NCBI GenBank assembly: GCA_964646355.1
Contig: CAZYEE010000002.1
Span: 1 to 45,909, forward strand
Source of the DNA: an uncultured archaeon
GTDB lineage: Archaea; Asgardarchaeota; Lokiarchaeia; Helarchaeales; HEL-GB-B
Reading direction: 5' to 3'
Length of the DNA stretch: 45,909 bases
Of the stretch, positions 17,986-38,109 are shown in pieces. The position numbers were made by a program, and so were the translations under genes. Each line of letters starts with the position of its first letter. Positions within the stretch are counted from its first letter, which is position 1. Below the pieces are notes generated by a model, which did not search any database, was not told where the DNA came from, and saw nothing but the letters and a program-made list of their open reading frames with translations.

Positions 17986-18942
17986 ATGGAAAATTTGTTG
18001 AAAGTAGTTGATGATATTCATAATATAAGAATTCAAGGAGCCACAAATGTTGCAATTCATGGAATAAAAGCTTTTTCAGAATATATTCAAGCCATAGATG
18101 TAAAAGATTTGGATGAATTAAAGAAAAAAATGGAAAAAGCAAGAAAATTATTGAGTGAGGCTAGACCTACAGAACCAGGATTAATTAACGGATTAATCCA
18201 TGTAATAAATGGTCTGAATATTGACAATATAAAAGAAGATAATCCTATTGAAATTATAAAACACAGGATTGGGATTATAACCGATTATTATATTAATTTT
18301 ATTAAAGAGGCAAAAGAAAAAATTGGAATGATAGGTGCTAGAAGAATAGAAAATGGGAGTATAATTATGACCCATTGCCATTCTTCTGTTGTAACTAATA
18401 TTTTTATTACTGCAAAAAATATGGGTAAAGAATTTCAGGTGATTTGTACTGAAACAAGACCTAAATATCAAGGACGAATTACGGTAAAGGAAATGCTGGA
18501 AAATGGAATTCCTACTACATTGATTGTAGATTCTGCGATGCGATGGATCTTAAAACATAAACAAGTGGACTTGATAATTACTGGATGTGATTCAATTACA
18601 TCAGAAGGTACTGTGATTAATAAAATTGGTTCTAGATTACTTGCGTTGGCTGCTCATGAGATGGATGTGCCATTCTATACCGCTACCACCCTTATTAAAT
18701 ATGATCCAAATACTTCTTTTGGCTATCTGGCTGCAATTGAGCAACGAAGCCCTAATGAGATCTGGGCTGATAGACCTGAGAGTGAGAATTTAAAAATATT
18801 AAATCCTGCATTTGAAACTATTTCAAGAGAATATATAGATGCTTTAATCACAGAGGTTGGTGTTTTTCCGCCCACAATGATTTCGCATATTTATGACAGA
18901 CATTTTGGATGTGTAATAAAAGAATTAAAAAATTTGAGGTGA
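17986..18942 (+). CDS. Ribose-1,5-bisphosphate isomerase (eIF-2B alpha/beta/delta family)
   Basis: eIF-2B-like fold motifs (IRIQGATNVAIHG, MTHCHSS, TETRP..QG, GCDSITSEGTVINKIGS). It sits 6 nt upstream of form III RuBisCO, the classic archaeal AMP-salvage pairing. Confidence 0.8.
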   Translation: MENLLKVVDDIHNIRIQGATNVAIHGIKAFSEYIQAIDVKDLDELKKKMEKARKLLSEARPTEPGLINGLIHVINGLNIDNIKEDNPIEIIKHRIGIITDYYINFIKEAKEKIGMIGARRIENGSIIMTHCHSSVVTNIFITAKNMGKEFQVICTETRPKYQGRITVKEMLENGIPTTLIVDSAMRWILKHKQVDLIITGCDSITSEGTVINKIGSRLLALAAHEMDVPFYTATTLIKYDPNTSFGYLAAIEQRSPNEIWADRPESENLKILNPAFETISREYIDALITEVGVFPPTMISHIYDRHFGCVIKELKNLR

Positions 18943-18948
18943 TTTAGT

Positions 18949-20226
18949 TTGAGTTATGATGATTCCATTTTTGTTTCCACGCCGGAGGAAATAGACCCGA
19001 ATGAGTATGTTATTGCAAAATATATGGTAAATTCAAAATATCCGACGAAAAAAGTAGGTCAGATCATAGCAGCAGAGGAATCTATCGGAACATGGACTAA
19101 ACTTGAACATGATATTGAATTTGTGCATGAAAATTTGGTGGCTAAAGTCTTTGAATATACAAATTCAAATTCTGGAGTCATTGCAATAGCATATCCCGTT
19201 GATTTATTCGATATTGAGACAGGAGGAATTCCGAATTTATTAAGCATTATAGCAGGAAATTTATTCGGTCTAACTGAACTTAAAACAATACGTTTGTTAG
19301 ATGTGGATTTCCCGAAAGAATATGTTAGACATTTTCCAGGCCCAAAAATTGGTATTGATGGTATAAGAAAAATTTGTGGGACTACTGAATCTAAGCGACC
19401 GCATGTGGGCACTATAATAAAGCCCAAAGTTGGGCTTGATCCAAAACAGACGGCATTAGTTGCTTATCGAGCAGCACAAGGAGGGCTCGATCTAATTAAA
19501 GATGATGAGACTCTAACAAATCAAAAATTCTGCCCGTTAGAAGAGAGATTGGTAAATGTAATGGAAAAGCTGGATCAACATAAAGAGGAGACGGGTAAAA
19601 CGGTATTGTACGCAGTAAATATATCCTCTGACTATGATAAACTGCTTGATTTAGCTGATTTTGCCAAAAATAATGGTGCAAACTGTTTAATGATAGACGT
19701 CTTAACATGTGGTTTTAGTGCAGTCAAAATTATCGCGGAAGACGCGTCAATAAAATTACCGATCCATATTCATAGAACAATGCATGGCGCAATAACCAGA
19801 GCTAAAAATTATGGTATTTCAATGCTTACTATAGCAAAACTGGTCCGAATGGTAGGTGGAGATCAACTTCATACTGGAACAGGAGCTGGAAAAATGGGAG
19901 ATGTAGATGAATTACCTGAAATTCAGCAAATTAATAAATTTTTGAGAAGTGATTGGTATGGATTTAAAAAGACATTTCCAGTAGCATCAGGAGGCATTCA
20001 TCCCGGCATTGTGCCCCGAAATATAGAGTTATTGGGCACGGATATAGTTATACAGGCTGGTGGTGGTGTTCATGGGCATCCAATGGGTACTACAGCAGGA
20101 GCAAAGGCTATGATACAAGCTGTTGAAGCATCTATGAAAGGAATTGAGTTAAAGGAATATGCAAAAACGCATAAGGAACTAAAAATTGCAATCGATAAAT
20201 GGGGAGAATTATATAAAAAAGTTTAA
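18949..20226 (+). CDS. rbcL: Ribulose-bisphosphate carboxylase large subunit, form III
   Basis: Catalytic motifs are intact: GNLFG, GLDLIKDDE (carbamylated Lys), HIHRTMHG, GGIHPG and GGGVHGHP. 425 aa. The start is TTG. The next in-frame Met is residue 26, which lies inside conserved sequence. Confidence 0.92.
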   Translation: MSYDDSIFVSTPEEIDPNEYVIAKYMVNSKYPTKKVGQIIAAEESIGTWTKLEHDIEFVHENLVAKVFEYTNSNSGVIAIAYPVDLFDIETGGIPNLLSIIAGNLFGLTELKTIRLLDVDFPKEYVRHFPGPKIGIDGIRKICGTTESKRPHVGTIIKPKVGLDPKQTALVAYRAAQGGLDLIKDDETLTNQKFCPLEERLVNVMEKLDQHKEETGKTVLYAVNISSDYDKLLDLADFAKNNGANCLMIDVLTCGFSAVKIIAEDASIKLPIHIHRTMHGAITRAKNYGISMLTIAKLVRMVGGDQLHTGTGAGKMGDVDELPEIQQINKFLRSDWYGFKKTFPVASGGIHPGIVPRNIELLGTDIVIQAGGGVHGHPMGTTAGAKAMIQAVEASMKGIELKEYAKTHKELKIAIDKWGELYKKV

Positions 20227-22357: not shown

Positions 22358-22474
22358 TGTTATCTCACTAATAGATTTAATTATTGAACGTAAAATAAAG
22401 GTTGTTATTAATTTTTTCTTACCATATTAAATTTCACATTAAATTTAAAATCGTAATTATTCAATAAATAATTG

Positions 22475-22915
22475 ATGACTGGTATTTATAAAAAAGGAAC
22501 GATTACTCTAATCGATTTGATAAATAAAGTAAAACAGAATCCAAGAATTGACGAAGCAGGAGCTATAGTAACTTTTACTGGTATTGTTAGAGGATTAAAT
22601 TCAGAGAATAAGAAGGTCGAACACCTCGAAATAGATTCTTATGAGGAAATGGCAGATAAAATACTTAAAAAAATTGCTCAAGAAGAGATTAATAATGGGA
22701 TAATAGATATCCAAATCGCACATATGATCGGTGATTTTTCTAAAGGAGAGGATCTGGTTTATATCGTAATTTTAGGTGCACATCGCAAAGAATGTTTTGA
22801 AACCTTGAAACGTGTTGTTGATAGATATAAATCTGAAGCCCCTTTATGGAAAAAAGAATTCTTAGAATCTGGAGAATCATACTGGATTGGAACACCGACA
22901 GAAAATTCAGAATAG
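22475..22915 (+). CDS. moaE: Molybdopterin synthase catalytic subunit MoaE
   Basis: GAIVTFTGIVRG..., ...LEIDSYEEMA..., HMIGDFSKGEDLVYIVILGAHRKECFE, PLWKKE. The track ORF starts at TTG 22472, and an ATG follows at 22475. Confidence 0.85.
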   Translation: MTGIYKKGTITLIDLINKVKQNPRIDEAGAIVTFTGIVRGLNSENKKVEHLEIDSYEEMADKILKKIAQEEINNGIIDIQIAHMIGDFSKGEDLVYIVILGAHRKECFETLKRVVDRYKSEAPLWKKEFLESGESYWIGTPTENSE

Positions 22916-24325: not shown

Positions 24326-24568
24326 TTATTCGATCTTATTTTCTTGATATATTCTTATTATTTTATTCTGACTTAATTCTCCTTTTATAATATTTATTGC
24401 GGATTTTTTGATATTAAAAAATTCAGAAAGCACCTTTATTAATTCTTTATTAGCTTTACCTTTTATGGGAGGTGCCTTTAGCTTGATCTCAAAATAATCG
24501 TGTGAGATCTGCACAATTTTAGTCTCTTTTGATCCTGGTATTACATGTACCTTTATAGTTTTTGTCAT
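24326..24568 (-). CDS. DUF167/YggU-family small protein
   Basis: V.PGSK....I......I.L.APP..GKAN.ELIK.LS..F.I.KS.I.I..G..S..K.I.I is the family signature. 80 aa. Confidence 0.75.
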   Translation of the reverse strand: MTKTIKVHVIPGSKETKIVQISHDYFEIKLKAPPIKGKANKELIKVLSEFFNIKKSAINIIKGELSQNKIIRIYQENKIE

Positions 24569-24729
24569 GAAAAAACCTATTATAGTTAAAGTAATAAGAG
24601 CAGGTTATATTTAATCTAAGTTAGCATTTTTTAAGATATAAGAAATTGTTATTCTTTTAGAATAAGGATAATAAAATATAAATTAATTATGAATATAAAA
24701 GAAATAAATTAAGATAAGTATAATATAAA

Positions 24730-25044
24730 TTAGGTAAAGATATCATCTATATCTTCGTCTTCTAACAAATCATCTTCGATTTCGTCGTCTAAATCAAATT
24801 CAATATAATCATCATCATCAATATATTCTACATCAACATATTCAGCATTTGGTGGCAATTTTCCTTGCATAAAACGCTGATATTCTAAAAATTCTTTTCT
24901 AAATCTAGGGTCTCTTAACATTCGTCGCATAGCATCTTCAGCATTCTGCATACCCTTTCTATATCTTACAAACATTATTGGAAACATTATAATCATTTTA
25001 ATGATTTCAATAAACTTTTTTATTGGATTAACCAAATTTATCAC
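24730..25044 (-). CDS. Small protein with N-terminal hydrophobic helix and extremely acidic C-terminal tail; function unknown
   Basis: 104 aa, GTG start. The tail is YVDVEYIDDDDYIEFDLDDEIEDDLLEDEDIDDIFT. It lies 34 nt downstream of scpB on the same strand. Confidence 0.5.
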   Translation of the reverse strand: MINLVNPIKKFIEIIKMIIMFPIMFVRYRKGMQNAEDAMRRMLRDPRFRKEFLEYQRFMQGKLPPNAEYVDVEYIDDDDYIEFDLDDEIEDDLLEDEDIDDIFT

Positions 25045-25078
25045 ATCTTACTTTATTTAGTTTTTATTTTATTATTGA

Positions 25079-25576
25079 CTATTCATAAAGTTTTTCCAAT
25101 TCGTCTGCTACTCGTTTTAAATTTACTTCATTTATTAATTTTTGGGTGATTTGAAATGTTTCATTTTTGTCATCATAGACAATATAATTAGCTGCTTGTA
25201 ATTCCTTTAAATGTTGTTTCACATTTTGACCTCTTAAGGATTTAAGTAAATCTATATCGATTTTCTGATTTCTGTAATAATATAGAATTATTACTGCTAA
25301 TGTAGCTGTTGCTGCCTTACTTAATTTTGGTCTAACTATCTCTAAATTTTGTAAATAATCAATAAATTCTGGTTTAAGCATTAAATAGAATCTTTTATTT
25401 TTTGTATTATATTTTAAACATAAAACTGAATTCTCTAATTTAGCTTCAAGTTGAGATATTAAAAATAAGCTGTATTCATAATCTTTAATCTTTATTAATT
25501 TAGAGATGTCATGAATAGAAACTCCTTTTTCACCTCTAATAAATAACAATGATTCAAGACACAATAAATGATTCAA
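25079..25576 (-). CDS. scpB: Segregation and condensation protein B (ScpB)
   Basis: N-terminal LESLLFIRGEKGVSIHDISKLI is the ScpB signature. It has two winged-helix halves and follows scpA by 26 nt. Confidence 0.8.
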   Translation of the reverse strand: MNHLLCLESLLFIRGEKGVSIHDISKLIKIKDYEYSLFLISQLEAKLENSVLCLKYNTKNKRFYLMLKPEFIDYLQNLEIVRPKLSKAATATLAVIILYYYRNQKIDIDLLKSLRGQNVKQHLKELQAANYIVYDDKNETFQITQKLINEVNLKRVADELEKLYE

Positions 25577-25602
25577 AATCTCACTTCCAATTTATTCATT
25601 TT

Positions 25603-26289
25603 TTATTCATTAACTACTTTTATATAAATTGTCCCATTAGGAAAATCTTCCTGATATATCTCAATTTTTTCCTCATTTGCTAGATAAGTTAATAAAATAA
25701 GTAGAGCGCCAGCTTCAGACCAATCTTTCCTGGTTAGTAATTCCTCGAATTCAATAACATTTTTATTCATTGAGCGTATCTTCTTATATAATTCATTTAA
25801 TTCTTTTTCAATCAGATAAACTTCAGTTTCTACTGGAAAATAATCAACAATCTGCATGGTTTTATTGTATTTTTTACGTTCAGGTCGATTTATTACGAGG
25901 TCAGTATAACATTTTATAAAATAATTTTCAGTAAGCGGGACCGAGAATTCTGGAATTTTATGATAGAAATTAATAGTTTCTGCAAGTTGGTCATCATTAA
26001 GGGATTTTATTGTTTGAAAAAACTCGAAATTTCCTTTTATTTTTTTTCCAATTATTTTTTGTAAAAGATTTTCTACTTTTTTCTGTATAATTTCAGCAGA
26101 TTGTGAATACACTTCCACTGTTATTTCATCATATCGCCCTTTTTTCAACTCAGATTTTAAAGGTTCATATATGGTATTTATCAAGTTTAGGTTATCTAAA
26201 GAGATTTCACCTTTGAGTGCTTTTGTACATATTTCCAAAATTTTTTCTGCATTGTTTATTTTATTTTTAATTTCTTTATCTTCAGACAT
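25603..26289 (-). CDS. scpA: Kleisin ScpA (segregation and condensation protein A)
   Basis: 228-aa helical protein sitting between smc and scpB, the conserved operon position. The C-terminal winged-helix-like segment is WSEAGALLILLTYLANEEKIEIYQE. Confidence 0.7.
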   Translation of the reverse strand: MSEDKEIKNKINNAEKILEICTKALKGEISLDNLNLINTIYEPLKSELKKGRYDEITVEVYSQSAEIIQKKVENLLQKIIGKKIKGNFEFFQTIKSLNDDQLAETINFYHKIPEFSVPLTENYFIKCYTDLVINRPERKKYNKTMQIVDYFPVETEVYLIEKELNELYKKIRSMNKNVIEFEELLTRKDWSEAGALLILLTYLANEEKIEIYQEDFPNGTIYIKVVNE

Positions 26290-26397
26290 AATTAAACCTT
26301 TAAAATCTTCGTTTAATTTCTATTATAATTCTTATAGAATTTTCATCCATTTTTTATAATTTTCACCTAGACTTTAGGTTCTGTTATCTTAAATTTA

Positions 26398-29300
26398 TTA
26401 ATTATAAGATTCGCGTTTTATACAAGTTATCCTTGTAAAACCCTTCTTTTTATGAAGAGAATAAATTCGTTGAGCAAATACTCGAAGATAGGACTTTCTT
26501 GGGGTAGTAACTATATATTGACTACTATTAGAAAGTTGTACCAACAATTTTCCCAGTGATTCGCAATGTTGATCATCTAAATGAGCATCAATTTCATCAA
26601 GAAAATACCAAACACTTTTTTTAAGTAGTCTTTGAATTGCAAAAATAATACTTGCGGCGACTATACTATTTTGTCCACCTGAGAGAGATCGAGTACTTGA
26701 TACCACACCAGAGCCCATATCTACCCTTATATCTACTCCACTTTCAAGTGGAGATTGTGGATTAATTGAAATTAGTTCAATACTACCTTTAGGATGTATT
26801 TTATTAAAGATATATTTTAAATTCTTATTCAATTTATCTAAAGTTTCAATAAATTTTTGCTTCTTTTGTTCATAAAGATCATAATATAAATCAGAAGCGG
26901 ACTCTAATTCCTCTTTGCAGGTCTTTCTTTTTTCAACTAGTTCATTAATCTTTTTCATTTCTTCCTCATATTTTTCGGGAGCTGTGGGGTCAACAGGGCC
27001 CAATTTGCTTAACTCCTCTTCTAATTTTTCAATTTCAAGGTCTATTTCTTTAAAATCAATTTCCTTTATCTCATCAATTTTTACACCGAGTGATGCCATT
27101 TTATCCTCAATATTTTTAGCTCGTTCTAAGAGAGTGGATTTAGATTTATTTAACTCATTAATTTCATATATTAAACCTTTAATTTCTGCATCTATCTCCT
27201 CTTTTTTATCTACAATTTTTGCCCTTCTTTTTTGTATAGACTCTAATTGTTCATTAATCTCTTTGATTTTATTATCGATTTCATCATATCGTTCTCTTTG
27301 AGTATCTATCAGCTTTGTTAATTCCTCTCTTTCTATATCTAGTTCAGACCGCTCTTTTTCTACTTCTTTAATTTGATTTTGATACTCCTGTATCTGGCTT
27401 TCAAAAAAGGCGATTCGTGAATTGTAATTAAGAATTTCGGTATTATATCGTGCAATTTCTTTTTCTGAACTTGAAATTTTTTTATGTAAAGAAAGAATCT
27501 GCCCTTGTTTCTCTTTTATTTGATTTTCGACATTACCTAATTCAGTATTATCAATTTTAAGTTGAATTTCAGCCATTTTATTTTCTAATTCTCGAATTCT
27601 TTCGATAGTTAATCCTAATTCGGCGTCAAGATTTTCAAATTGTGTGACCGCTTCAATATATTCATCTTCTAATTTTCTATAGTCCATTATTACTTTATCT
27701 AGTATAGGATTAATTTCTAGAACTTGATTTTCTAGCTCCAAAATTCTTCCGTCTAACTGAGCTAGCTCTTCAACAATTTCAATTCGTTTCCGATCAGACC
27801 TCTCACGATCAGTGGTTAATTTGGTCACTTTTTTTCTTAATTGTGTATAATGACCTGTTAATTCTTCAAGTTCAAGTTTTACTTCGTAAATTTTTCGTCT
27901 ATAAAATTCATTAATTAATAAAAATCTTGAATCAAATTTATTTAATATCACAATCTCGCCAGTGGGCTCCACCAGAATACCGTCCTTAGTCACGCATCTA
28001 AAATTCGAATATTTTAATGCGGTATCGAGATCGACGACTAATAAAGTATTCTGAAATATTGCTTTGAATAATTTTTCATATTTTGGATCATACATAACAT
28101 AGTCAATAATTTTTCCAAGAACTTTGCTATCAGCTGGCACTTTCAATTCTTTAAACTCTTTAATATCGTTTAATGAAAAAAATGAGATTTGGCCAAAATT
28201 TAAGTCATTAATTTTCTGGGTAATCTCTTCTATATCATGATAATTATTTACCACAATATTTTGAAGTTTCTCGCCCCCCGCAATTTCAATAGCAAGAGCA
28301 TAATCCTTTTTTATATCAGAAATTAATTCTAAGGGAGTACCAATTACTGTTTTTAATATGCTATCGTCTCTTAATTTGAGTATTTTCTGTATTTCATCTG
28401 AATATCTAGGAATCATTTTTTCAAGTCTTATTTCGAGTTCATGTTTTTTCTCCGTTAATTCATTTATTTGTTTTTCATATTCGGTAATATTATAAAATAA
28501 ATCTCGCATTTCATCTTGACTATACGTTAAAAAGGTTTCAATTTTGTTTTTTTCATTACGTAAACGGTTTGATTTTCTTTGCATTCTGGTAAGTTTGCTG
28601 TTTATATTATTTAAAGAATCTTCTAATTCATTTTTTCGATTTAATAAGCTTTCTCGTTTATTTGATAGAATTTCAGTCTTACTCCTCCATTCAGTACGAA
28701 ATTTATCAATTTCATTCTTTTTTTGTTCTAGTTTTTTGATCTGTTCGTCTATTTTTTGGCGTTCTAAAGTAAGATATTTATATTCATCTTCAAGAGCAGG
28801 TAATCTATCTTTTAACTTTAAAACTTCCAGTTGCAGTTTTCTGCTTTTCTCTTTATTTTCTTTATCTAATTCTCTGATTTCAGATAATTTTTTCTCTGCT
28901 TTTTTTCTTTGATCTATGAGTTTCTTGATAGACTCATTTCTAAAAGTATTAATTTTTCTTTTAAATTCATCGATTTTTTCTTTTTTCTTAAAAATTTCAT
29001 CATTTATTCTATTTAAATTCTGAATTTGAATGCTGGATGCACCTGCCATCCGCATTTTTTCCTGTTCCAGCTTAGTACGTTTTAACCTTTCTTTTTCAAT
29101 CTGACCTCTTATTTCAGAAATTTCAACATCAAGTTGAGAAATTTGATTTTCCAGCTCTTTTATCTTGTTATTTCGTTCATTTATTTGATTATCGTGTTCA
29201 GAAATTTTTGAATTAAGTCTATTCAAAACGGATAATAATTTTAAAGCTTTATTATAATTTATTTTTTGCTTTATTTCTCTATATTTTAAGGCTTTATCTC

Positions 29301-29919
29301 TAGATTTTTTATATTTCTCTAATCTATTTTTAGCATCTTCTATAAGTAGTTCAATATGGTACAAAACATTTTTTGCATTATTTATTTTAGCTTCTGCTTC
29401 TGATATTTTTGGGTCATATTGAGATACACCTGCAATTCTTTCAATTAATTTTCTAAGACTCTCAGGAGATTCATTAATCTTAGTAGATATTTCTCCTTGT
29501 TTTACCATATTAAATCCATTTTGATTTATTCCATACTTGGCTAAAACTTCTTGAATCTCTGATAAAGAAGCGTTATTGCCATTTAATTTATAAACACTAT
29601 AAGCCCGCCCACTTTTTGGGACCCTTAATTGTCTTGTAATGGTTATAATTTCATTTTCTTCATCATCACTAAATATTAATGTTACTTCACAAAAATCAGC
29701 CATTCTCTGATTTATTGTAAAGTCTTTACTTATTAATTCAATTGCAGTACCTTCTAATCGATCATCATGTCCTCCTAATGCAAATGATATGGCATCTAGA
29801 ACGTTCGATTTACCTGTACCATTATTTCCCGTTAAAAGAGTTATCTTTTTTGAAAAATCTATTTCAAAAGATCCATTAAAAGTTTTGAAATTTGTTATAA
29901 TAGCCTTAGATAAGTACAT
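26398..29919 (-). CDS. smc: Chromosome segregation ATPase SMC
   Basis: Walker A GNNGTGKSNVLDAISFALG, with long coiled coils flanking a central hinge (about aa 520-680). Signature LSGGQNS and Walker B WYFLDEIDAHLD. 1173 aa. Confidence 0.95.
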   Translation of the reverse strand: MYLSKAIITNFKTFNGSFEIDFSKKITLLTGNNGTGKSNVLDAISFALGGHDDRLEGTAIELISKDFTINQRMADFCEVTLIFSDDEENEIITITRQLRVPKSGRAYSVYKLNGNNASLSEIQEVLAKYGINQNGFNMVKQGEISTKINESPESLRKLIERIAGVSQYDPKISEAEAKINNAKNVLYHIELLIEDAKNRLEKYKKSRDKALKYREIKQKINYNKALKLLSVLNRLNSKISEHDNQINERNNKIKELENQISQLDVEISEIRGQIEKERLKRTKLEQEKMRMAGASSIQIQNLNRINDEIFKKKEKIDEFKRKINTFRNESIKKLIDQRKKAEKKLSEIRELDKENKEKSRKLQLEVLKLKDRLPALEDEYKYLTLERQKIDEQIKKLEQKKNEIDKFRTEWRSKTEILSNKRESLLNRKNELEDSLNNINSKLTRMQRKSNRLRNEKNKIETFLTYSQDEMRDLFYNITEYEKQINELTEKKHELEIRLEKMIPRYSDEIQKILKLRDDSILKTVIGTPLELISDIKKDYALAIEIAGGEKLQNIVVNNYHDIEEITQKINDLNFGQISFFSLNDIKEFKELKVPADSKVLGKIIDYVMYDPKYEKLFKAIFQNTLLVVDLDTALKYSNFRCVTKDGILVEPTGEIVILNKFDSRFLLINEFYRRKIYEVKLELEELTGHYTQLRKKVTKLTTDRERSDRKRIEIVEELAQLDGRILELENQVLEINPILDKVIMDYRKLEDEYIEAVTQFENLDAELGLTIERIRELENKMAEIQLKIDNTELGNVENQIKEKQGQILSLHKKISSSEKEIARYNTEILNYNSRIAFFESQIQEYQNQIKEVEKERSELDIEREELTKLIDTQRERYDEIDNKIKEINEQLESIQKRRAKIVDKKEEIDAEIKGLIYEINELNKSKSTLLERAKNIEDKMASLGVKIDEIKEIDFKEIDLEIEKLEEELSKLGPVDPTAPEKYEEEMKKINELVEKRKTCKEELESASDLYYDLYEQKKQKFIETLDKLNKNLKYIFNKIHPKGSIELISINPQSPLESGVDIRVDMGSGVVSSTRSLSGGQNSIVAASIIFAIQRLLKKSVWYFLDEIDAHLDDQHCESLGKLLVQLSNSSQYIVTTPRKSYLRVFAQRIYSLHKKKGFTRITCIKRESYN

Positions 29920-29934
29920 TTTAACAACATCTAA

Positions 29935-31614
29935 TTATTTATTTAATTCAAATTCAGTAATAACTTCATTATATTGATCATCGGTAAAAGATATAGTATA
30001 TTTTTTCCCAATTTTTGGAAAGAGAATTGAATATGGATTTTTATTTAAAGTCCTTTTTAACGTTTCAATATTTATTCCGGCTACTTTTTGAATTTCACTT
30101 AAGTCTAGGGCTCTCTGTTCTGTTTCAAATAATTTAGCTAATCTTGAAATCAAATTATAATTATCAGATAGCGCAAGTCTCAGCGCATTCTTGATCATCT
30201 TTTTGTTTATTAACATTTGAGAGTTTAATGCTTCGATTTTTAATTCAATTTCTTCTAAATCAGAGGAACTAGAATAAATCTTATCTGTGGTAGATTGAAC
30301 TTTAGAAATTTTTTTCAATCTTGGAGAAAACTTTGATTTTTGAGCAACAATATTATTAAACGAAAATTGGATATCATCTTCAGAAACATATTCTTTATTT
30401 TCATTGATTGATTTAAAATAAGCTCCTTCAACTATCTTTACAAGATCTTTGCAGGAAAGCCCATCCATATTTTCATCCATAGTTAAATTGCTCACTAAAA
30501 TATTGATATCTAGATTTTCATCCAAATTAATATTTTCTAATAATCTATGTAAGATTTCAGAACGTGCAACCTCGTTTGGATAGTCAAATAAACAATATTG
30601 ATCAAATCTTGACAAAAGCGGTTGATCTAGATCGTCCAGATCTATTGTAGTACATATAACCAAAACTTTATCATTACATAAATTAATTTTATCTAAGAAA
30701 TTTAAAAAATTAAGAAGTGCCATGTTTGAGATTTCCGAATTAAATATTAACTGAACATTTTCGATTAATAAAATACAAGGTATTATATTTTCATTATTTT
30801 TTACGAGATTAATTATATAGTCAAGCGATTCAATCTGAAATTTGATATTATTTGCTAATAATAATGGTAAATTTAACTCTAAAATATTTAATGACAACTC
30901 TTTTGCTATTGCATAAACTGTAGATGTTTTTCCATTTCCTGGTGGGCCATAAAGTAATATTTTTGAGTCAAAATTGTATAATTGCTTAGGTAATTTGATA
31001 AGCCGTCCTCTTGATAATATAAGATCTTTATTTGATTGATAATCACCCAGCATTTCCAAAGTAATTTTGATGTCTTCGGGGGATACGATTTTATATATCT
31101 TTTCAATATTTGAACTTTCTTCGGAATCTGGGGCAGATTTGATTAAGTTCTTGATGGTATCTTGGAATTCCTGAGTGATTTTTCTGATTTCTTCTATGAT
31201 AGAATCAGTTCCATAATCTCTAATTGCGCCCATATTAATTTCAATTTGACCATCTGCTACTTGGGAAATTATCGAATCAACCTTTTTAGCCCAATTATCT
31301 ATTTTATTATAATTAGTCTGTAGCTCAGAAATATTCTTTATATTGTTTTCAAGCTGACTTTTAATTTCAACTAAATCTTCTTTTATTACTACCAGATCTG
31401 CACCTAATTCAGATAGCTCTTTACCATTTAAAAGTCTCAAGCTTTCGCTTAATTTTTTACTTAATTCTGATACCTTGCTTGTAATAATATTAAAAGCTTC
31501 TATAACTCCTTCAGCTTTCGGGACGTCTCCTTCAGGAGTTGCAATTCTCTCTATTACGATATTTTTTTTCTCAGACACTTTGACCAAATCCCTATAGTTA
31601 TATATTATCATCAA
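29935..31614 (-). CDS. Classic-clade AAA+ ATPase with N-terminal coiled coil and C-terminal winged-helix-like domain
   Basis: Walker A LLYGPPGNGKTST. The Walker B position reads CILLIENV, so the Asp is replaced. It also has a sensor/second region of homology (VICTTIDLDDLDQPLLSRFD..., P.EVARSEIL). The stop is 15 nt upstream of the smc start on the same strand. Confidence 0.8.
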   Translation of the reverse strand: MMIIYNYRDLVKVSEKKNIVIERIATPEGDVPKAEGVIEAFNIITSKVSELSKKLSESLRLLNGKELSELGADLVVIKEDLVEIKSQLENNIKNISELQTNYNKIDNWAKKVDSIISQVADGQIEINMGAIRDYGTDSIIEEIRKITQEFQDTIKNLIKSAPDSEESSNIEKIYKIVSPEDIKITLEMLGDYQSNKDLILSRGRLIKLPKQLYNFDSKILLYGPPGNGKTSTVYAIAKELSLNILELNLPLLLANNIKFQIESLDYIINLVKNNENIIPCILLIENVQLIFNSEISNMALLNFLNFLDKINLCNDKVLVICTTIDLDDLDQPLLSRFDQYCLFDYPNEVARSEILHRLLENINLDENLDINILVSNLTMDENMDGLSCKDLVKIVEGAYFKSINENKEYVSEDDIQFSFNNIVAQKSKFSPRLKKISKVQSTTDKIYSSSSDLEEIELKIEALNSQMLINKKMIKNALRLALSDNYNLISRLAKLFETEQRALDLSEIQKVAGINIETLKRTLNKNPYSILFPKIGKKYTISFTDDQYNEVITEFELNK

Positions 31615-31789: not shown

Positions 31790-32302
31790 ATGGACGATTT
31801 AGATTTTAATATTACATTAGGAGAAGTAAAAGGTTATTGGAATTGGAAACATAACATACCCTTATTTAGATTTACCGAGGGTAGAGGCGAAAATTGGAAG
31901 AGAAGATTAAAGGAAGAATTGGAAAAATTAGAGATACTAAAGAAATATGGTAAAGAAAAAATATTCTTTGAGGATATAATTTTAGACGAAAGAAATGACA
32001 GAATTTTTCATTGTCTTAGCAATATAAAAGGTAAGAAAATTGATATTGTTATAAGATTACCCGTGCGATATCCAAAAGATCCACCTCTTGCGGACTTTTC
32101 GGTAGGACCATGGGCATTTCCCAGTGAAGCTGGTATTAGATCTGCATGTTTAGGCCAAATTTACAGTAAATGGGATAGGACCGGAAGGATGGGAGTGGCG
32201 CATTTTGTAGGGATGTTAGGTTCATATATAGCTCTTGCCCTACATTCAATTTCAACCCCAAGAGTAAAAAATGAAAATCTAAAAAGACGAAAAAAGCATT
32301 AA
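31790..32302 (+). CDS. UFC1-like (UFM1-conjugating-enzyme-like) E2, paralogue 1
   Basis: 170 aa, against 167 for human UFC1 as I recall it. WKRRLKEELEKL matches UFC1 WVQRLKEEYQSL. IRLPVRYPKDPP matches IPITYPTTAP. The candidate catalytic Cys120 lies in SACLGQIYSKWDRTGRMGVAHFVGMLGSYIALA, compared with [34 protein letters not shown]. There is no HPN motif, as in UFC1. Confidence 0.8.
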   Translation: MDDLDFNITLGEVKGYWNWKHNIPLFRFTEGRGENWKRRLKEELEKLEILKKYGKEKIFFEDIILDERNDRIFHCLSNIKGKKIDIVIRLPVRYPKDPPLADFSVGPWAFPSEAGIRSACLGQIYSKWDRTGRMGVAHFVGMLGSYIALALHSISTPRVKNENLKRRKKH

Positions 32303-32320
32303 ATTTTTATAAAGAGGGTG

Positions 32321-33157
32321 ATGATCATAGATTTTGCGGATATTGCAGATGAGATAAAATCAGAAATGAGACCATGGACTGAAGTTGAGGTAATTATTTC
32401 CGATATTCAAGGAAATATAAAGTATTCAGATATTTTTTCTCAAAAGTTTTTATTAGCACTCTCAAGATTTATTAAGAAAAAAGGTCCAACTTTTGCAATC
32501 GGGGATTATTACTATATCCAAAATGTTTCTGGTGTCATGCTCTTCAAAACTTCGATGAACAGTATGGTAATTCTTAGAACACAACAAAAATTAGGGATTT
32601 TATTGATCTTTCTTAAAATATTAGAACGTATAGGACTTGAAATTGATATTCTATTAGGAGATTATATTCGAATAGAAAAAACACCACCAAAATATTGTGA
32701 TCAAGAGTTCATTCCCAGAGAAATACCATTATTTAATATCATTGCTAAACCAAATTCTCCAAATTGGCTTGACAGGTTACAAGAGGAATATGATAAATTA
32801 AATTATTTATATAGATTAAGAGATACTTATTCAACATTTAGTATATATAAACAAGCAAATAGTAATAGAATTTTCAAATGTTCATTCCAAGGTATTGTAT
32901 TCGATCTCAGATTAAGCCTTCAATATCCATTTGTTATGCCTATTGCTGATGGCTTTTATTTTGGTCGATGGTTTAATCCTGCAGGAGATCATAAAAATGC
33001 ATGCTTAGGCATATTAAAAAATAGATGGAGACCCGATGGAAGAATGGGAATCGCTCATTTTATTCAATTATTAGGATATTATACCTCTATAGCAAATTCG
33101 AAACCAGTTGAATTTAAGGTAAGACAGCCAAGAGCAATAAATATTCATTTTTATTAA
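32321..33157 (+). CDS. Roadblock/LC7-like N-terminal domain fused to a UFC1-like E2 domain, paralogue 2
   Basis: The N-terminal 115 aa or so fit the Roadblock pattern (EVEVIISDIQGNIKYSD...VMLFKTSMNSMVILRTQQKLGILL). The C-terminal half has WLDRLQEEYDKL, LSLQYPFVMP and NACLGILKNRWRPDGRMGIAHFIQLLGYYTSIA. The Cys codon is at 33002-33004. It starts 15 nt after paralogue 1; GTG is at 32318 and ATG at 32321. Confidence 0.75.
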   Translation: MIIDFADIADEIKSEMRPWTEVEVIISDIQGNIKYSDIFSQKFLLALSRFIKKKGPTFAIGDYYYIQNVSGVMLFKTSMNSMVILRTQQKLGILLIFLKILERIGLEIDILLGDYIRIEKTPPKYCDQEFIPREIPLFNIIAKPNSPNWLDRLQEEYDKLNYLYRLRDTYSTFSIYKQANSNRIFKCSFQGIVFDLRLSLQYPFVMPIADGFYFGRWFNPAGDHKNACLGILKNRWRPDGRMGIAHFIQLLGYYTSIANSKPVEFKVRQPRAINIHFY

Positions 33158-33257
33158 TTATTGCTCCTTATTTATTCCTAATGTTTAATTGTGTTATTTT
33201 TTTACGAATTTTAACGGCTGTTTTTCAATAGAACATGTTTTATTCAATATCAAATCT

Positions 33258-34082
33258 CTATCTTTTTTCTTGAATATCACCACATGTATCGCAATTTTTT
33301 CTAGGAGTTAGATTAAAGTACTGGAGCGATACATCTTTTTCAAGTGAAAATCTTATTTGTGAAGGTATTGGCTCATTTAAAACGAGTTTTATTCCTTGAT
33401 CTGCTTGAAGACTGCCCGTTATATTCATAGTTGTTGCCAAACTTGCGCCGCAAGGTATTTTTGGAATTTGTATTTGAGATTCATCAGGTTCTAGGTCTAT
33501 CAAAGTATCATAGCTATAATAGCATTCTAAACAAGGTGTCTTTCCAGGTATTACATTATTAACAATCCCTCTTAATGCATTTTCAGATGTACCACCATCT
33601 ATTAAAGGTTTTCTTGATATTACCGCATATAGATTTACCTCAATCCTTGCAGCTTCATTATCAAAACATGTAAAAATAAGATTAGATTTTCTTATCAACT
33701 CTTCTAATTTGTCCCAAGCAATTATATCAGCCAAATACCATTCAGTTTTAACATGAAACTTTTTATCGATTTCAGGGAGATTTCTTGTCCGTTCTAAGAA
33801 TTTTGCCAAGGTTTCAGATTTACTTTTTCCCAAATCTTCTTCGTGATGGTTCATACGATTCAAATTTTCCTCAGAAACGATATCCTTGTCCACGATTATA
33901 AATTTTCCAAATCCACATCTATTCAAAATATCTGCTACAATTCTACCAAGTCCACCAGCGCCCCCAATAAATACCGTGGTATCTAGAAATTTACGGACAT
34001 CATAGCCAGCAAATATAACTCGTGAAAACATTTTTGGCATATTCAAAGCAAGCTCTTCTCGTTCTTCAACTGGAATCAACAT
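33258..34082 (-). CDS. UBA5-like E1 (ThiF-fold adenylating enzyme with catalytic-Cys loop)
   Basis: [68 protein letters not shown] matches UBA5 [50 protein letters not shown] matches UBA5 [26 protein letters not shown], which contains the catalytic Cys. The second zinc pair is CDTC near the C-terminus. Confidence 0.85.
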   Translation of the reverse strand: [274 protein letters not shown]

Positions 34083-35150
34083 TTAGATATACCACCCAAA
34101 TGTGTCAGTTATTAAAATATCTAATATCAGATCAAATAGATTCTTAAAAAAAATTAAATTAATCTTTTTATGCTCTTCAATTATTTTCCATTCTAATGGT
34201 GTTTTTATTTTGGAAACTTTAGTATAATTTGGTAAAATTTTATCATTTTCAACAAATCTGAGTTTAGTTATTTCGGATTCGTCTATTTTAATAAGGTCTA
34301 ATAAAATATCTCTTAATTTATACAAAGTATCATCTTGATCCAAGAAAATCCGAATTAGAATATCCTCATTTAAACCAACATTTTTTAAATAAACAGGGTA
34401 TCGTGGAGGAATGTCCAATTTTTTGGGTATTTGATCCAACTTTAAATCATAGGGAATAGGTATATTATCTATTTCAAAATCAGATCTCGAAAATAATTTT
34501 AATAATTCATGCCCTATTTGGTCTAAGAATCGATACTTTAAACCTTTTACATTTTCAGATTTTTGTGCTACCAGTTTTAGATCTATTTTAAGCGAAATTT
34601 TTTTCTCAATTAACTGTTCATAAGGTTCGAGTTCTCGAATTTCTACTTCTACTTCATAGATATTATTTTCAGTGGCTGTATAGCCTGCTATTCCATCATA
34701 CGGCTCTACAATATAAATTATAAAGGCATTCTGAGAAGAACCTTTACCATATAATAGATAATCTTTTTTATCTGTTCCGCTATAACCTAAAAATCCTGGA
34801 TGTTTATGCATATTTCCAACAATATCAAGCCCAGCAGGTAATCCAGCCCTTATTCTGGCTATTTTTTTTAATCCGGATTTTATAAACGCACCTGATTGCT
34901 CAGTATAGTCGAATTCAATTAAATCATAAATATAACAAGTCTTACCTCTAAATAAACCTACAATATAAAACCCTACCTCATTTGGTGTTTGACGACCGAT
35001 ATCTAATGCCTTTAACCATAATTTTGTAGGTAATATTATTTTATTTACTATGGGTTTATCTTCATGTTCTATATCTAAATACCCAAATTCACTTTCATAA
35101 TCATCATATTTCTTTTTATAACGTTGACTTTTTCTGAAAAACAAGATCAA
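34083..35150 (-). CDS. JAMM/MPN+ metalloprotease domain fused to a C-terminal beta-grasp (ubiquitin-like) candidate segment and a hydrophobic tail
   Basis: Glu in PNEVGFYIVG. The metal/catalytic motif HKHPGFLGYSGTD (H115, H117, S124, D127) is at nt 34770-34808. Residues about 251-324 (PVYLKNV..ILIRIFLDQDDTLYKLRDILLDLIKID..KLRFVENDKIL..LEWKII) have a beta-beta-alpha-beta-beta-beta pattern. The last 27 or so aa are hydrophobic (LIFFKNLFDLILDILITDTFGWYI). TTG start. The gene is flush with both neighbours: a 5-nt gap upstream and 0 nt downstream. Confidence 0.7.
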   Translation of the reverse strand: MILFFRKSQRYKKKYDDYESEFGYLDIEHEDKPIVNKIILPTKLWLKALDIGRQTPNEVGFYIVGLFRGKTCYIYDLIEFDYTEQSGAFIKSGLKKIARIRAGLPAGLDIVGNMHKHPGFLGYSGTDKKDYLLYGKGSSQNAFIIYIVEPYDGIAGYTATENNIYEVEVEIRELEPYEQLIEKKISLKIDLKLVAQKSENVKGLKYRFLDQIGHELLKLFSRSDFEIDNIPIPYDLKLDQIPKKLDIPPRYPVYLKNVGLNEDILIRIFLDQDDTLYKLRDILLDLIKIDESEITKLRFVENDKILPNYTKVSKIKTPLEWKIIEEHKKINLIFFKNLFDLILDILITDTFGWYI

Positions 35151-35155
35151 AACCC

Positions 35156-35704
35156 CTAAATGTTAATAGGTCTGCTTTTTCGTTCTAATGCATAATAATA
35201 TCCGATCATGGTACAAAAATGTGCAAGACCAAATCTTCCATCAATTCTCCAGCGCTTTATAAGTTTTCCAAAACATTTATAAGCAAGAGAGACATGAAAA
35301 TCACCCTCAGACCTCTGAACTAAAGGAATTTGCTTCGGATATAAAATTGATAACCTTATTTCTAATTTCATAGGTTTTGAACCTTTTGAAAAATAGAAAT
35401 CGGCGCTCCAGATTCTCGTATTATTGCTTTCATGTTTCAAATTGTCAAAAACATAAAAACCTACCGAATGTATGTATTTTTCTTTTAAAATATTAAAAAT
35501 TTCATATTCTTCCTGGACTCGAAGGTTCCATTTGGTCGATCTTGGAGTATAAATATTTTTAAACAATGGTAATTCTTCAAAAATAGCATCGCTTTTAATC
35601 TTAAGTTCGTATGGAGTAAGAAAATTTTTCCGAATAAATTCATTCATATCTATTGAAATATCGTCGAAGTATTTTCGCATATCAAGATAATCTTTGTCCG
35701 TCAA
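35156..35704 (-). CDS. UFC1-like E2, paralogue 3 (most divergent)
   Basis: WNLRVQEEYEIF, IRLSILYPKQIP and YKCFGKLIKRWRIDGRFGLAHFCTMIGYYYALE. The Cys144 codon is at 35273-35275. 182 aa, TTG start. It is the first gene of the E2-JAMM-E1 operon. Confidence 0.75.
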   Translation of the reverse strand: MTDKDYLDMRKYFDDISIDMNEFIRKNFLTPYELKIKSDAIFEELPLFKNIYTPRSTKWNLRVQEEYEIFNILKEKYIHSVGFYVFDNLKHESNNTRIWSADFYFSKGSKPMKLEIRLSILYPKQIPLVQRSEGDFHVSLAYKCFGKLIKRWRIDGRFGLAHFCTMIGYYYALERKSRPINI

Positions 35705-36508
35705 TTTCAGTTCCCATTATTAATAAAATGTTAATTTTATTTAAAGTATTTGAATTTAATATTTTAAAATATAGAGCTCATAATTTAACAAATCATTTTT
35801 GAAAATAACCAGTTTTTTTATTAATGTCTAAAAAATATATCTATAAGGAATTACCTTTTTATTGAAAATATTTGATTCTTTCATTGGAGTAAAATAACCA
35901 TCACGTTTTTTATATCATTTAACCGAAATCATTAAACTAATCCTTGATTTTAATTTTTTTATTTTTGTGGATAAGCTTAATTTTTACACCATTACTAAAA
36001 ATAATAATGGATATTGGATCAAATTAGGAGAATTTTCAAGAAAAATTACACTTTACACTTTACAATCGAAAAAAAGATAAAAATACAATGATGAATTTAT
36101 TAGTAATTTATGAATTAATTCTGAATAATCAGAAAAAAAATAAAAATTCACTGTAAGAATTTTAGGATTAATTTACGGTGATTTTATTTTGCAGACTAAA
36201 AAATCAAAATATTATAATAAAAGTAGTAAACAATACGGCAGACAACACAATAAACAAAAGATTGTTCAATATTTACATGTTTTTAAATCTGTATCACTTA
36301 AAAAATTGAACAAGATATCCGGCTGAACTTTAATGAAATTCAAGAAATAATCAATAATGAATTAAATTCGGGGAGAATTATCGGGGAATTTAAATTTGGA
36401 ATATTTTATAGGGATCTAGATATATCCAAAAAAAAGAAGGAACTATTATTAAAATATATAAATGAAAATGATAAGATTTTTTTAGAGGATGCCTCAAGGA
36501 TCGCCCGA

Positions 36509-37393
36509 TTGAGTCCAAGACAGACTCGTGACTTAATTGATGAATATTTAAATGGAAATATAATTAAAGGGAAATGGAATTCAGAAAAAAATCTATTTAT
36601 CAATTTTGCTGTAGAAAGTGTTTCAAAAGAATTAGAGGTAAAAAGAGATTTTGATTATGTTGGAGGGAATGTACGCTTTAAAGTGGTCGTGAGAAATGTC
36701 ACAAAGATGCCAATAACAGATATTAATGTAATATTAAATGTAGGTGGACAGTACATAATTGATGAAGAGTCCAAAAAGGTTGAGGCATTAATGCCTGGAG
36801 AAACGAGGGGGGTAGATTTTATGCTTACACCAGTCACATGCAGAATATCAAAAATATTAGGACTGGTCACCTATTATGACCCATTCAATGAAATGCATAG
36901 TATTACTATAAGACCAAAGGATATTCGAATTAAATGTCCTTTAGTAATCCCCGCTGATGCAACAAATAGCGAAATAATTGAATGGCAAAAATCATTGTTA
37001 AAGGGTTATAGCGTTATTCAATATAAGGATTTACCACCAAATCATGTTTTTAATATAGTCTGTGATCAAATATCTTCTTTAGATTTAAAATTAATCAGCA
37101 GGAATGATGAAGACCTAATCTCAACTTATGCAGGAATAACAAAAATCTCTAACTCAAAACTTGTGGTAGTCGCTAAAATTAATCGTGATGAAATCAAAAT
37201 AGCAACATGGACTCCATCATTAAAAGAAGCTACGGGGTTTATTGCATATTTAAAGAATCTAATCAATATTGCACTAGATGCATCCCAATTAAAAGTAGGT
37301 ATGGAGAAAATAGGACAAAAAATCATTAGGCTTTTTGAAGTATCTCAAAGATTAATTACATTATACGAGTTTTGTAGAAAAAAGAATCAGTAG
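36509..37393 (+). CDS. Winged-helix + beta-sandwich protein, function unknown; true 5' end probably lies upstream of 36509
   Basis: The WH-like N-terminus is FLEDASRIARLSPRQTRDLIDEYLNGNIIKGKW. The Ig/CARDB-like segment is GGNVRFKVVVRNVTKMPITDINVILNV...LMPGETRGVDFMLTPV. The same frame stays open back to 36302 (69 codons) with no ATG, GTG or TTG in it. Confidence 0.65.
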   Translation: MSPRQTRDLIDEYLNGNIIKGKWNSEKNLFINFAVESVSKELEVKRDFDYVGGNVRFKVVVRNVTKMPITDINVILNVGGQYIIDEESKKVEALMPGETRGVDFMLTPVTCRISKILGLVTYYDPFNEMHSITIRPKDIRIKCPLVIPADATNSEIIEWQKSLLKGYSVIQYKDLPPNHVFNIVCDQISSLDLKLISRNDEDLISTYAGITKISNSKLVVVAKINRDEIKIATWTPSLKEATGFIAYLKNLINIALDASQLKVGMEKIGQKIIRLFEVSQRLITLYEFCRKKNQ

Positions 37394-37434
37394 AGGATTT
37401 ATTAATCCTAATAAAAGAGATAAAATATAAATTG

Positions 37435-38109
37435 ATGAAAATTGATAGAAATAACAAAATAATAAATTATATTGAGCAATGGGAAATAGATTTTGGTACA
37501 AAATATGATGAAAATAATCTTAAAGAAAACATTATATCAAATTTAATATATGATACTTTAAATTGGTTGGAAGAATTAGAAGATTCTATTAATACAAATA
37601 TCGATAATTATTATGCCTCATTTAAAGAGAATATTGAAGCAATTGAAGAAAATAAGAAAAAATTATACGAATTAAGAAAAAATATTAAATTAATACAAAA
37701 AGATTACCTGAATTTAATTCTTAGATATATAATGGTCATCTATAAAAATAGTGGAATTGTTGTTTATTCTTATGCGTTCAGTGGATTTGATATGGATGAA
37801 GATTTAATTTCGGGATTTCTTACAGCTATCGGTTCTTTTGGTACCGAAATAACAAAAAAAGATACTGATATGGAATCGATTAAATATCAAGATTTTGAAA
37901 TAGAGGTGGCAAATGGCACGAATATTAAAGTCGCCTTGATTTTAAATGGGAAAAAAATAGATGTTATTAAAAAATTGATTAGAAAATTTATAAATATGTT
38001 TGAAATGGAATATAAAAATGAATTGAAAAATTGGAGTGGTGATGTTTCTATCTTCAATAATGCTAATAAATTAATTGATGAATGTTTTAATTTTGGTAAT
38101 GAAAATTAA
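37435..38109 (+). CDS. Coiled-coil protein with C-terminal Roadblock/longin-like domain
   Basis: The N-terminal 90 aa or so are helical. The C-terminus (IMVIYKNSGIVVYSYAFSG.DMDEDLISGFLTAIGSFGTEI...IKVALILNGK) fits the archaeal Roadblock/longin-like pattern. TTG is at 37432 and ATG at 37435. Confidence 0.6.
   Translation: MKIDRNNKIINYIEQWEIDFGTKYDENNLKENIISNLIYDTLNWLEELEDSINTNIDNYYASFKENIEAIEENKKKLYELRKNIKLIQKDYLNLILRYIMVIYKNSGIVVYSYAFSGFDMDEDLISGFLTAIGSFGTEITKKDTDMESIKYQDFEIEVANGTNIKVALILNGKKIDVIKKLIRKFINMFEMEYKNELKNWSGDVSIFNNANKLIDECFNFGNEN

Follow-up and report, generated by a model that had tools for sequence, protein, structure and literature searches.

We analyzed a 45,909-nt stretch of DNA from an uncultured archaeon of the Helarchaeales (lineage HEL-GB-B; contig CAZYEE010000002.1 of assembly GCA_964646355.1, positions 1 to 45,909 of the forward strand), hereafter the window. 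We focused on one open reading frame (ORF) at 32321..33157 on the + strand, which encodes two modules in a single chain: (i) an N-terminal domain with a predicted Roadblock/LC7 fold, and (ii) a C-terminal ubiquitin-conjugating enzyme (E2) domain related to UFC1. The ORF runs from ATG to TAA (278 aa plus stop) in an unbroken frame with no frameshift. A GTG codon sits at 32318, one codon upstream of the ATG, and a Shine-Dalgarno-like stretch, GAGGGTG, lies just before. The window has a G+C content of ~28%, and the nearest relatives of its proteins are found in metagenome-assembled genomes (MAGs) of Helarchaeota and Lokiarchaeota. Because the genome is so AT-rich, an open frame of 837 nt is unlikely to arise by chance, and the homologues settle the point.

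Searching 5.8 billion protein clusters, we obtained seven that are collinear over their full length of 276-283 aa, one of them the window's own and the others 60-76% identical to the window protein. The clusters stem from JGI, NCBI, and ENA assemblies. At the DNA level, we read the same single ORF in five further loci (L001-L004, and L010 from Helarchaeota Hel_GB_B). Both halves of the protein are strongly conserved among these orthologues, and the segment between them varies. The first-pass annotation of this DNA had named an assembly or frameshift artefact as one finding that would undo the fusion. Given that the ORF is unbroken, keeps its domain order, and stays within 276-283 aa across seven clusters and five further loci, we consider it next to impossible that a frameshift or mis-assembly joined two adjacent genes; independent assemblies carry the orthologous ORF, which excludes the artefact. 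The Roadblock-E2 fusion is a genuine conserved gene. Its distribution is narrow: the search of 5.8 billion yielded the seven clusters, defined at 90% identity, and a single species, Hel_GB_B, carries it among the GTDB representatives, which were scanned with exact peptide patterns that divergent copies could escape. The fusion is confined to a narrow Helarchaeota-type clade.

The N-terminal domain comprises residues 1-112 (32321..32656, +), and its assignment comes from an AlphaFold2 (AF2) model and Foldseek. The model of the fusion protein was built from a 29-row alignment, to which we had added distant N-domain relatives and 18 E2-only paralogues; only 11 N-domain sequences stand behind this part of the model. 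It reached a predicted local distance difference test score (pLDDT) of 85.3 and a predicted template modeling score (pTM) of 0.81, with most of the N-domain above a pLDDT of 90. DSSP assigned helix 5-16, strands 23-28 and 33-36, helix 41-57, strands 63-66, 72-76, and 81-86, and helix 93-111. This predicted order, alpha-beta-beta-alpha-beta-beta-beta-alpha, is that of Roadblock domains and not that of longin domains. An earlier model from a 7-row alignment, which the 29-row model replaced, had a pLDDT of only 40, yet showed the same order of elements, and its Foldseek matches were almost all Roadblock/LC7 proteins, including the dynein light chain LC7.

With the final model, the best Foldseek match of the N-domain in the PDB was the Roadblock domain of a Roadblock-Longin protein from Lokiarchaeota (8yql_A; E 1.8e-4, template modeling [TM] score 0.71, root-mean-square deviation 2.9 A over 105 columns). 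Further matches were MglB, the C-terminal domains of Gtr1/Gtr2, LAMTOR subunits, and Roadblock proteins of Prometheoarchaeum and Thorarchaeota; the exception was a pair of low-probability Mon1-Ccz1 (longin) structures. The domain therefore shares its predicted fold with the Roadblock superfamily as represented by PDB 8YQL/8YQK, 9JUE, and 7F8M, MglB, LAMTOR2/3, and the Rag/Gtr C-terminal domains, with TM scores of 0.5-0.6 to MglB and LAMTOR. It differs from them in several ways: identity in the structural alignments is 9-20%, the family is tiny, the domain is fused to an enzyme, and no partner GTPase is apparent.

No sequence signature accompanies this fold. Pfam Robl_LC7 (PF03259) gave no match at E up to 10, either to the seven isolated N-domains or to the whole protein, and nothing was found for the domain by NCBIfam, by phmmer against the PDB, or by a profile search of the PDB. 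Among the fusion orthologues the mean column identity of the domain is 77%, and the beta3 segment, 'GDYYYI', is almost invariant, a pattern that is compatible with a Roadblock dimer interface but no proof of one. On the predicted structure, we accept residues 1-112 as a Roadblock fold, and as a divergent member of the superfamily that lacks its sequence signature. The first-pass annotation had read the first 115 residues or so as Roadblock/LC7-like and had proposed Foldseek as a check. The search returned Roadblock-type structures and not another fold, so that this call holds up, by structure prediction only and with no Pfam match.

The family of this N-domain is small. When 1.84 billion representative proteins were searched exhaustively with an HMMER profile, four scored E <= 0.001, namely the fusion family and three others (P0008-P0010), and a second search with the N-domain alignment added a single 120-aa fragment (P0011). 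P0008-P0010 carry the same Roadblock-type module at the N terminus and, after it, a long linker that is disordered and either acidic or rich in proline. Winged-helix domains follow the linker weakly in P0009 and clearly in P0010, the nearest relative of the N-domain, in which they match Pfam HTH_NPRL3, a family of GATOR1 subunits. Loci for this group are L007 6001..7482 and L008 6001..6858; no GTPase or Ubl-system genes (Ubl, ubiquitin-like protein) lie beside P0009 or P0010, the relatives with winged helix-turn-helix (wHTH) domains. The occurrence of the domain on otherwise different proteins fits a portable interaction domain. As a separate observation, the architecture of P0008-P0010 is reminiscent of those subunits of eukaryotic GTPase regulators that combine longin/Roadblock and wHTH domains.

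Between the two domains lies a linker, residues ~113-130 (32657..32710, +), with few invariant alignment columns. It varies in sequence and length (an orthologue, P0007, has an 8-residue insertion that keeps the frame), and in the AF2 model it contains a short strand at 115-117 and has a pLDDT of 69 over residues 121-130. The first-pass annotation had rightly placed a linker here but put it at about 20 residues; depending on where the N-terminal extension of the E2 domain is taken to start, the inter-domain segment is rather ~20-35 residues long.

The E2 domain, of the ubiquitin-conjugating (UBC) fold, spans residues ~131-262 (32711..33106, +) and was assigned by a family profile and Foldseek. 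Profile searches collected an E2 family of 25 proteins, all from Asgard MAGs or metagenome contigs, which fall into four subfamilies: stand-alone proteins of ~170, 182, and 201 aa, and the fusion. The predicted catalytic residue, Cys228 (codon TGC, 33002..33004, +), is invariant in 25 of 25 members, and the E2 paralogues of the window share an invariant C[LF]G...W...G..G.AHF motif. Searched against the PDB, the family profile matched human UFC1 with E 2e-8 (37 bits; profile positions 41-170 on UFC1 10-150), compared with ~E 1e-4 (25 bits) for the canonical E2s UBE2L6 and UBE2N. HMMER places Cys228 on Cys116 of UFC1 ('naClG' versus 'KICLT', within 'GGKICLT'). In Pfam, 16 of the 25 proteins matched UFC1 at E<0.1 (best 5.2e-6) and one matched UQ_con; the fusion protein itself scored 13.1 bits against UFC1 (PF08694; E 0.076, residues 134-168), which does not reach the gathering cutoff of 25 bits.

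Structure comparison points the same way. Within the Foldseek top 50, every match to the E2 domain was a UFC1 structure (TM 0.52-0.57, probability 1.0). Compared with other E2s, UFC1 specifically has a helix (alpha1-2) after the catalytic Cys and one long alpha2, and lacks alpha3 and alpha4 (Kumar et al. 2021, PMC8481289). The model of the fused domain has a helix at 226-235 right after the Cys, a long helix at 244-258, and no alpha3 or alpha4 before the tail; the loop before the Cys, at 216-227, is of low confidence. Many residues of the domain are invariant among the fusion orthologues. By profile and model, the C-terminal domain is a divergent but recognizable UFC1-type E2 with a predicted catalytic Cys. 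The first-pass reading of a complete UFC1-like domain with its Cys is thereby borne out.

Residues 263-278 (33107..33154, +) form a C-terminal tail that ends in P[RK]A[IV]NIHFY. The tail is conserved in the seven fusion orthologues, absent from the E2-only paralogues, and contains a short strand at 271-273 in the model. The closest paralogue of the fused E2 domain, with 43-48% identity, is the 201-aa subfamily, which has an N-terminal helical extension and is encoded elsewhere in Helarchaeota genomes (L005 2314..3797 and L006 7123..8606). The start of the 201-aa E2 gene overlaps the end of an uncharacterized 293-aa gene. We considered this pair as a split version of the fusion and rejected it, as the 293-aa protein is not a relative of the N-domain.

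The fusion gene belongs to a five-gene cassette (31790..35704) that is kept in six loci (the window, L001-L004, and L010), in which a stand-alone E2 gene, E2a, and then the fusion gene converge on three genes of the opposite strand: E2c, a gene for a protein of 340-355 aa, and a gene for a ThiF-type activating enzyme (E1). The first-pass annotation had not placed the fusion beside three UFC1-like E2 paralogues and a UBA5-like E1. E2a (31790..32302, +) encodes a UFC1-like protein of 170 aa with Cys120 and a basic C-terminal tail. It lies directly upstream of the fusion gene in six of six loci, its stop is 18 nt upstream of that gene in the window, and the two are probably co-transcribed. E2c (35156..35704, -), the third UFC1-like paralogue, encodes 182 aa with Cys144, and its position is likewise kept in six of six loci.

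The E1 gene (33258..34082, -) encodes a ThiF-fold protein of 274 aa (Pfam ThiF 2.2e-37) that resembles UBA5. Against the PDB, UBA5 was the best match at E 1.7e-21 (80 bits, full length), with MccB and MoeB at 1e-11. The predicted catalytic Cys211, in 'IPCGASLATTM', aligns with the catalytic 'VCAASLPTTM' of UBA5, and the CxxC motifs of the Zn site, at 184 and 264, are conserved with respect to UBA5. The protein ends seven residues past the last CxxC (CDTC, 264-267) of the adenylation domain and has no UFM1-interacting sequence (UIS), linker, or UFC1-binding sequence (UBS). In human UBA5, the C-terminal linker/UBS recruits and activates UFC1 and completes the UFC1 active site (PMC8481289). Since the archaeal E1 lacks this C-terminal tail, E1-E2 recognition must differ from that of the human system.

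The remaining gene of the cassette (34083..35150, -) encodes, in the window, a 355-aa protein with a tentative JAMM/JAB domain in its N-terminal part and an uncharacterized C-terminal half. Pfam Prok-JAB (E 0.11, residues 53-132) and a PADLOC JAB model (E 0.015, residues 52-129) matched the same region, which contains the JAMM-like motif HKHPGFLGYSGTD (34770..34808, -), invariant in four orthologues (HKHPGFL.YS.TD). The protein has no sequence match in the PDB. On these sequence grounds we call it JAMM-like, tentatively.

No gene for a Ubl ending in Gly turned up within the cassette or next to it. The gap that follows the cassette, 35705..36508, contains no ORF of >=50 aa as a Ubl candidate. 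Two candidates were set aside: a conserved 104-aa ORF at 24730..25044 was rejected as a Ubl, being acidic-tailed and not a beta-grasp candidate, and a by-eye impression that the C-terminal half of the 355-aa protein is Ufm1-like was dropped as unsupported. That half gave no match in a profile search of the PDB, and its hhalign probability against an approximate UFM1 sequence was 0.2%. Ufm1 homologues have been reported in nine Asgard clades, without mention of UFC1 or UBA5 (PMC12962969, 2026).

Relative to UFC1 (PF08694; PDB 2Z6O, 7NVK), the fused E2 shares the predicted UBC-type fold, a Cys at the aligned position, and a UBA5-like E1 as a partner, and it differs in adding a 112-residue Roadblock domain and a family-specific tail, and in being one of three paralogues per cassette. 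No UFM1, UFL1, or UFSP gene adjoins the cassette. The host is an archaeon, whereas PMC10183829 reports UFC1 from eukaryotes only. That study restricts UFM1, UFC1, and UFSP2 to eukaryotes, records UBA5 from prokaryotes, and traces UFL1 and DDRGK1 to Asgard archaea; in the literature we searched, it is the only paper that mentions both UFC1 and Asgard archaea.

Several E2-fold proteins carry accessory domains. BIRC6 and UBE2O are large hybrids of E2 and ligase (E3), UBE2K has a UBA domain, and Cap2 is an E2-E1 fusion, as is BubCD; further examples are the ubiquitin E2 variant (UEV) domain of TSG101/Vps23 and the RWD domains of GATOR2 subunits. To our knowledge, no Roadblock domain is found among these accessory modules. 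The likeness to the Roadblock-E2 protein would be that targeting, binding of a partner, or E3-like specificity comes from an extra domain. In the Rag/Ragulator/GATOR pathway, the Roadblock domains and the E2-fold RWD domains that cooperate belong to different polypeptides, and the RWD domains have no catalytic activity. A structural survey of Asgard Roadblock and GTPase proteins describes Roadblock domains fused to GTPase and longin domains only (PMC10933270). We found no report of a Roadblock-E2 fusion in the literature searched, in agreement with the first-pass remark that no such E2 was known.

We hypothesized a role for the fusion that draws on the two folds, the conserved fusion and catalytic cysteines, the similarity to UFC1 and UBA5, and the synteny; to these it adds, by inference, catalysis, the identity of the Ubl, Roadblock-mediated dimerization, and the kind of partner that is bound. 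In the proposed scheme, a dimeric UBA5-like E1 would adenylate a Ubl encoded elsewhere and form a thioester on Cys211, and the Ubl would pass by transthiolation from the E1 to Cys228 of the fused E2 domain. The Roadblock domain would dimerize the fused E2 and/or dock it onto a partner protein, so that this E2 would gain a location or substrates unlike those of the two stand-alone E2s, a built-in adaptor or E3-like job. Processing or removal of the modifier would fall to the JAMM-like protein. Pairing of a dimeric E2 with a dimeric E1 would be an appealing arrangement. We propose dimerization or docking because the Roadblock fold is a homo- or heterodimerizing platform in all characterized relatives, and an E1 without the UFC1-recruiting tail leaves room for an extra docking or dimerizing module. 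On balance, we lean, by somewhat more than an even chance, toward a Roadblock domain that dimerizes or docks onto a partner, through which one of the three E2s acquires a location or targets of its own.

Several points weigh against this proposal. The missing Ubl gene counts against it, as does the basis of the Roadblock call, which rests on a predicted structure, 11 N-domain sequences, and modest Foldseek E-values (1.8e-4); the fusion protein's own Pfam UFC1 score is far under threshold. The Roadblock domain is not needed for E1-E2 transfer itself, because two stand-alone E2s work without one. Finally, the pTM of 0.81 hints at a fixed inter-domain contact in the model, which could mean intramolecular regulation rather than docking. 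Under that alternative, the Roadblock domain would pack on the backside or the active-site face of the E2 and regulate or stabilize it, for example by replacing the active-site desolvation role of the UBA5 linker. A pTM this high for a two-domain chain suggests a defined arrangement, the cognate E1 lacks the linker/UBS that completes the active site of human UFC1, and the conserved aromatic C-terminal tail is found only in the fusion family. The variable length of the linker speaks against such packing, as do E2a and E2c, which keep the same active-site motifs without a Roadblock domain, and we hold intramolecular regulation to be a credible but clearly minority explanation.

The first-pass annotation had seen in the fusion a hint of a link between Ubl conjugation and GTPase-type scaffolds. 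In such a GTPase-coupled E2, the Roadblock domain would bind a small GTPase of the Ras, Rag, Arf, or MglA kind, either directly or by way of a heterodimer of Roadblock/longin type, and the nucleotide state of the GTPase would switch or localize conjugation. Several structural neighbors are GTPase partners, namely MglB (which acts on MglA as its GTPase-activating protein), LAMTOR subunits, and the Rag/Gtr C-terminal domains; the winged helices of P0010 match HTH_NPRL3; and small GTPases and Roadblock/longin proteins, some of them fused to each other, abound in Asgard genomes (PMC10933270; bioRxiv 10.1101/2020.10.19.343400). Yet for Roadblock proteins of the MglB/Ragulator type in prokaryotes, the partner small GTPase is usually encoded nearby, and there is no small GTPase gene in the conserved cassette of six loci, nor in the neighborhoods of the Roadblock-wHTH relatives; this result covers the gene neighborhood, and a partner could be encoded elsewhere. 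Only two GTPase-like genes came to light: one, 25 kb from the cassette in the window, encodes a GPN-loop protein, and the other, of MMR_HSR1 type, is in L001 and is not conserved. Dynein light chain LC7, which is among the structural matches, is not known as a GTPase regulator, and Roadblock-fold proteins are widespread in prokaryotes (PMC12962969). The window ORFs that had suggested the link do not strengthen it. The supposed tandem Roadblock protein at 3202..4452, ~28 kb from the fusion and beyond the stretches fetched for the other loci, has only a sub-threshold Robl_LC7 match (E 0.032), and the supposed Roadblock/longin-like protein at 37435..38109 has none, which leaves both unconfirmed. 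The N-domain profile gave hhalign probabilities <1% against 3202..4452 and 37432..38109, and an hmmsearch of the window gave E>1. These ORFs are unrelated to the N-domain by sequence and are not syntenic, with no counterpart in the fetched stretches of the other loci. We regard GTPase coupling as unlikely. Also rather doubtful is a wider version, in which the genes form a self-contained proto-UFMylation cassette, the Roadblock domain couples Ubl conjugation to a platform of Roadblock/longin proteins and small GTPases, and UFC1 is of Asgard origin; if true, Ubl conjugation addressed by GTPases or to membranes would have a precedent in prokaryotes.

The content of the cassette, with E1, E2, and JAB-like genes, is that of a classical prokaryotic operon type, and the cassette could be the archaeal counterpart of the bacterial E1-E2-JAB conflict systems (Cap2/Cap3 of type II cyclic oligonucleotide-based antiphage signaling systems [CBASS], Bil, and Bub), acting as an anti-virus or stress module and not as a housekeeping pathway of proto-UFMylation. 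A ThiF-type E1, E2-fold protein(s), and a JAB-like protein are clustered in both; the cassette differs in that its E1 is a separate protein closest to UBA5, the E2 comes as three paralogues, and no Ubl or effector gene adjoins. The E1 partially matched the 'E1-E2' models of CBASS in PADLOC (E ~1e-11), the JAB-like protein matched weakly, and the distribution is narrow and patchy, with a single locus in the GTDB representatives. No PADLOC model matched any of the three E2s, and the E1 scored 80 bits over the full length of UBA5 versus 43 bits for the CBASS models, over the Rossmann part only. Moreover, no cyclase, effector, or Ubl gene adjoins, and the syntenic housekeeping flanks are unlike a defense island. 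A conflict system is in our judgment improbable.

The fusion and its cassette matter in two respects. A UBA5-like E1 and three UFC1-like E2s from Asgard archaea would supply the E2 that is missing from accounts of the origin of UFMylation, and that origin would become testable biochemically with a handful of small proteins. A catalytic E2 that carries a Roadblock domain would be an apparently undescribed way, in the literature searched, of giving an E2 specificity, and the fusion joins two families that are strongly expanded in Asgard archaea and important in eukaryotic trafficking and signaling.

The genes around the cassette are partly conserved. An AAA+ ATPase gene (29935..31614, -; 559 aa, Pfam AAA 7.3e-22) is divergent from E2a and separated from it by a 175-bp AT-rich spacer. 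It adjoins the cassette in five of the six loci (the window, L002, L003, L004, and L010, not L001), outside the strict core. The ATPase begins with a coiled-coil region and is extended at its C terminus, and it matches the IetA and TRIP13-type AAA models of PADLOC weakly. Flanking genes for SMC/ScpB, eRF1, and an Fe-alcohol dehydrogenase are housekeeping and syntenic. A run of five genes at 24326..29919 (-) encodes SMC (1173 aa), a 228-aa protein in the kleisin (ScpA) position, ScpB, the 104-aa acidic-tailed protein, and a DUF167/YggU protein, in the same order in L002, L003, and L004. On the other side, the Fe-alcohol dehydrogenase gene follows ~150 bp after the cassette in the orthologous loci, in place of a counterpart of 36509..38109. 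In the window, the ~800 bp of 35705..36508 lack ORFs of >=50 aa, tRNA genes, and Rfam matches alike, and may be a rearrangement breakpoint or an unrecognized non-coding element. Scans for tRNAs and Rfam families were likewise negative in the vicinity of the cassette.

The two ORFs that had been read as Roadblock proteins have features of their own. The product of 3202..4452 (-), of 416 aa, shows by eye two Roadblock-like repeats and a C-terminal coiled coil, and its sub-threshold Robl_LC7 match covers residues 18-68. The product of 37432..38109 (+), of 225 aa, has a coiled-coil N-terminal half and a C-terminal half that reads by eye as beta-beta-alpha-beta-beta-alpha. Its gene overlaps by 35 nt the start of a gene for a 1322-aa FG-GAP/beta-propeller protein (to 42043, +), with a weak BBS2_Mid match.

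Elsewhere in the window, genes related to sulfur carriers, which are Ubl-related, encode MoaA, a ThiF/MoeB-type E1, ThiI, and MoaE (2119..3051, 7653..8405, 8491..9654, and 22472..22915). The E1 among them is a second, classical ThiF/MoeB-type enzyme (Pfam ThiF 1e-76), so that at least two distinct E1-type enzymes, this one and the UBA5-like E1, are encoded within 45 kb. At 17986..20226 (+), a gene for an IF-2B-family protein, which may be ribose-1,5-bisphosphate isomerase, is followed directly by a gene for a RuBisCO large-subunit homologue, presumably of form III and belonging to archaeal AMP/nucleoside salvage.

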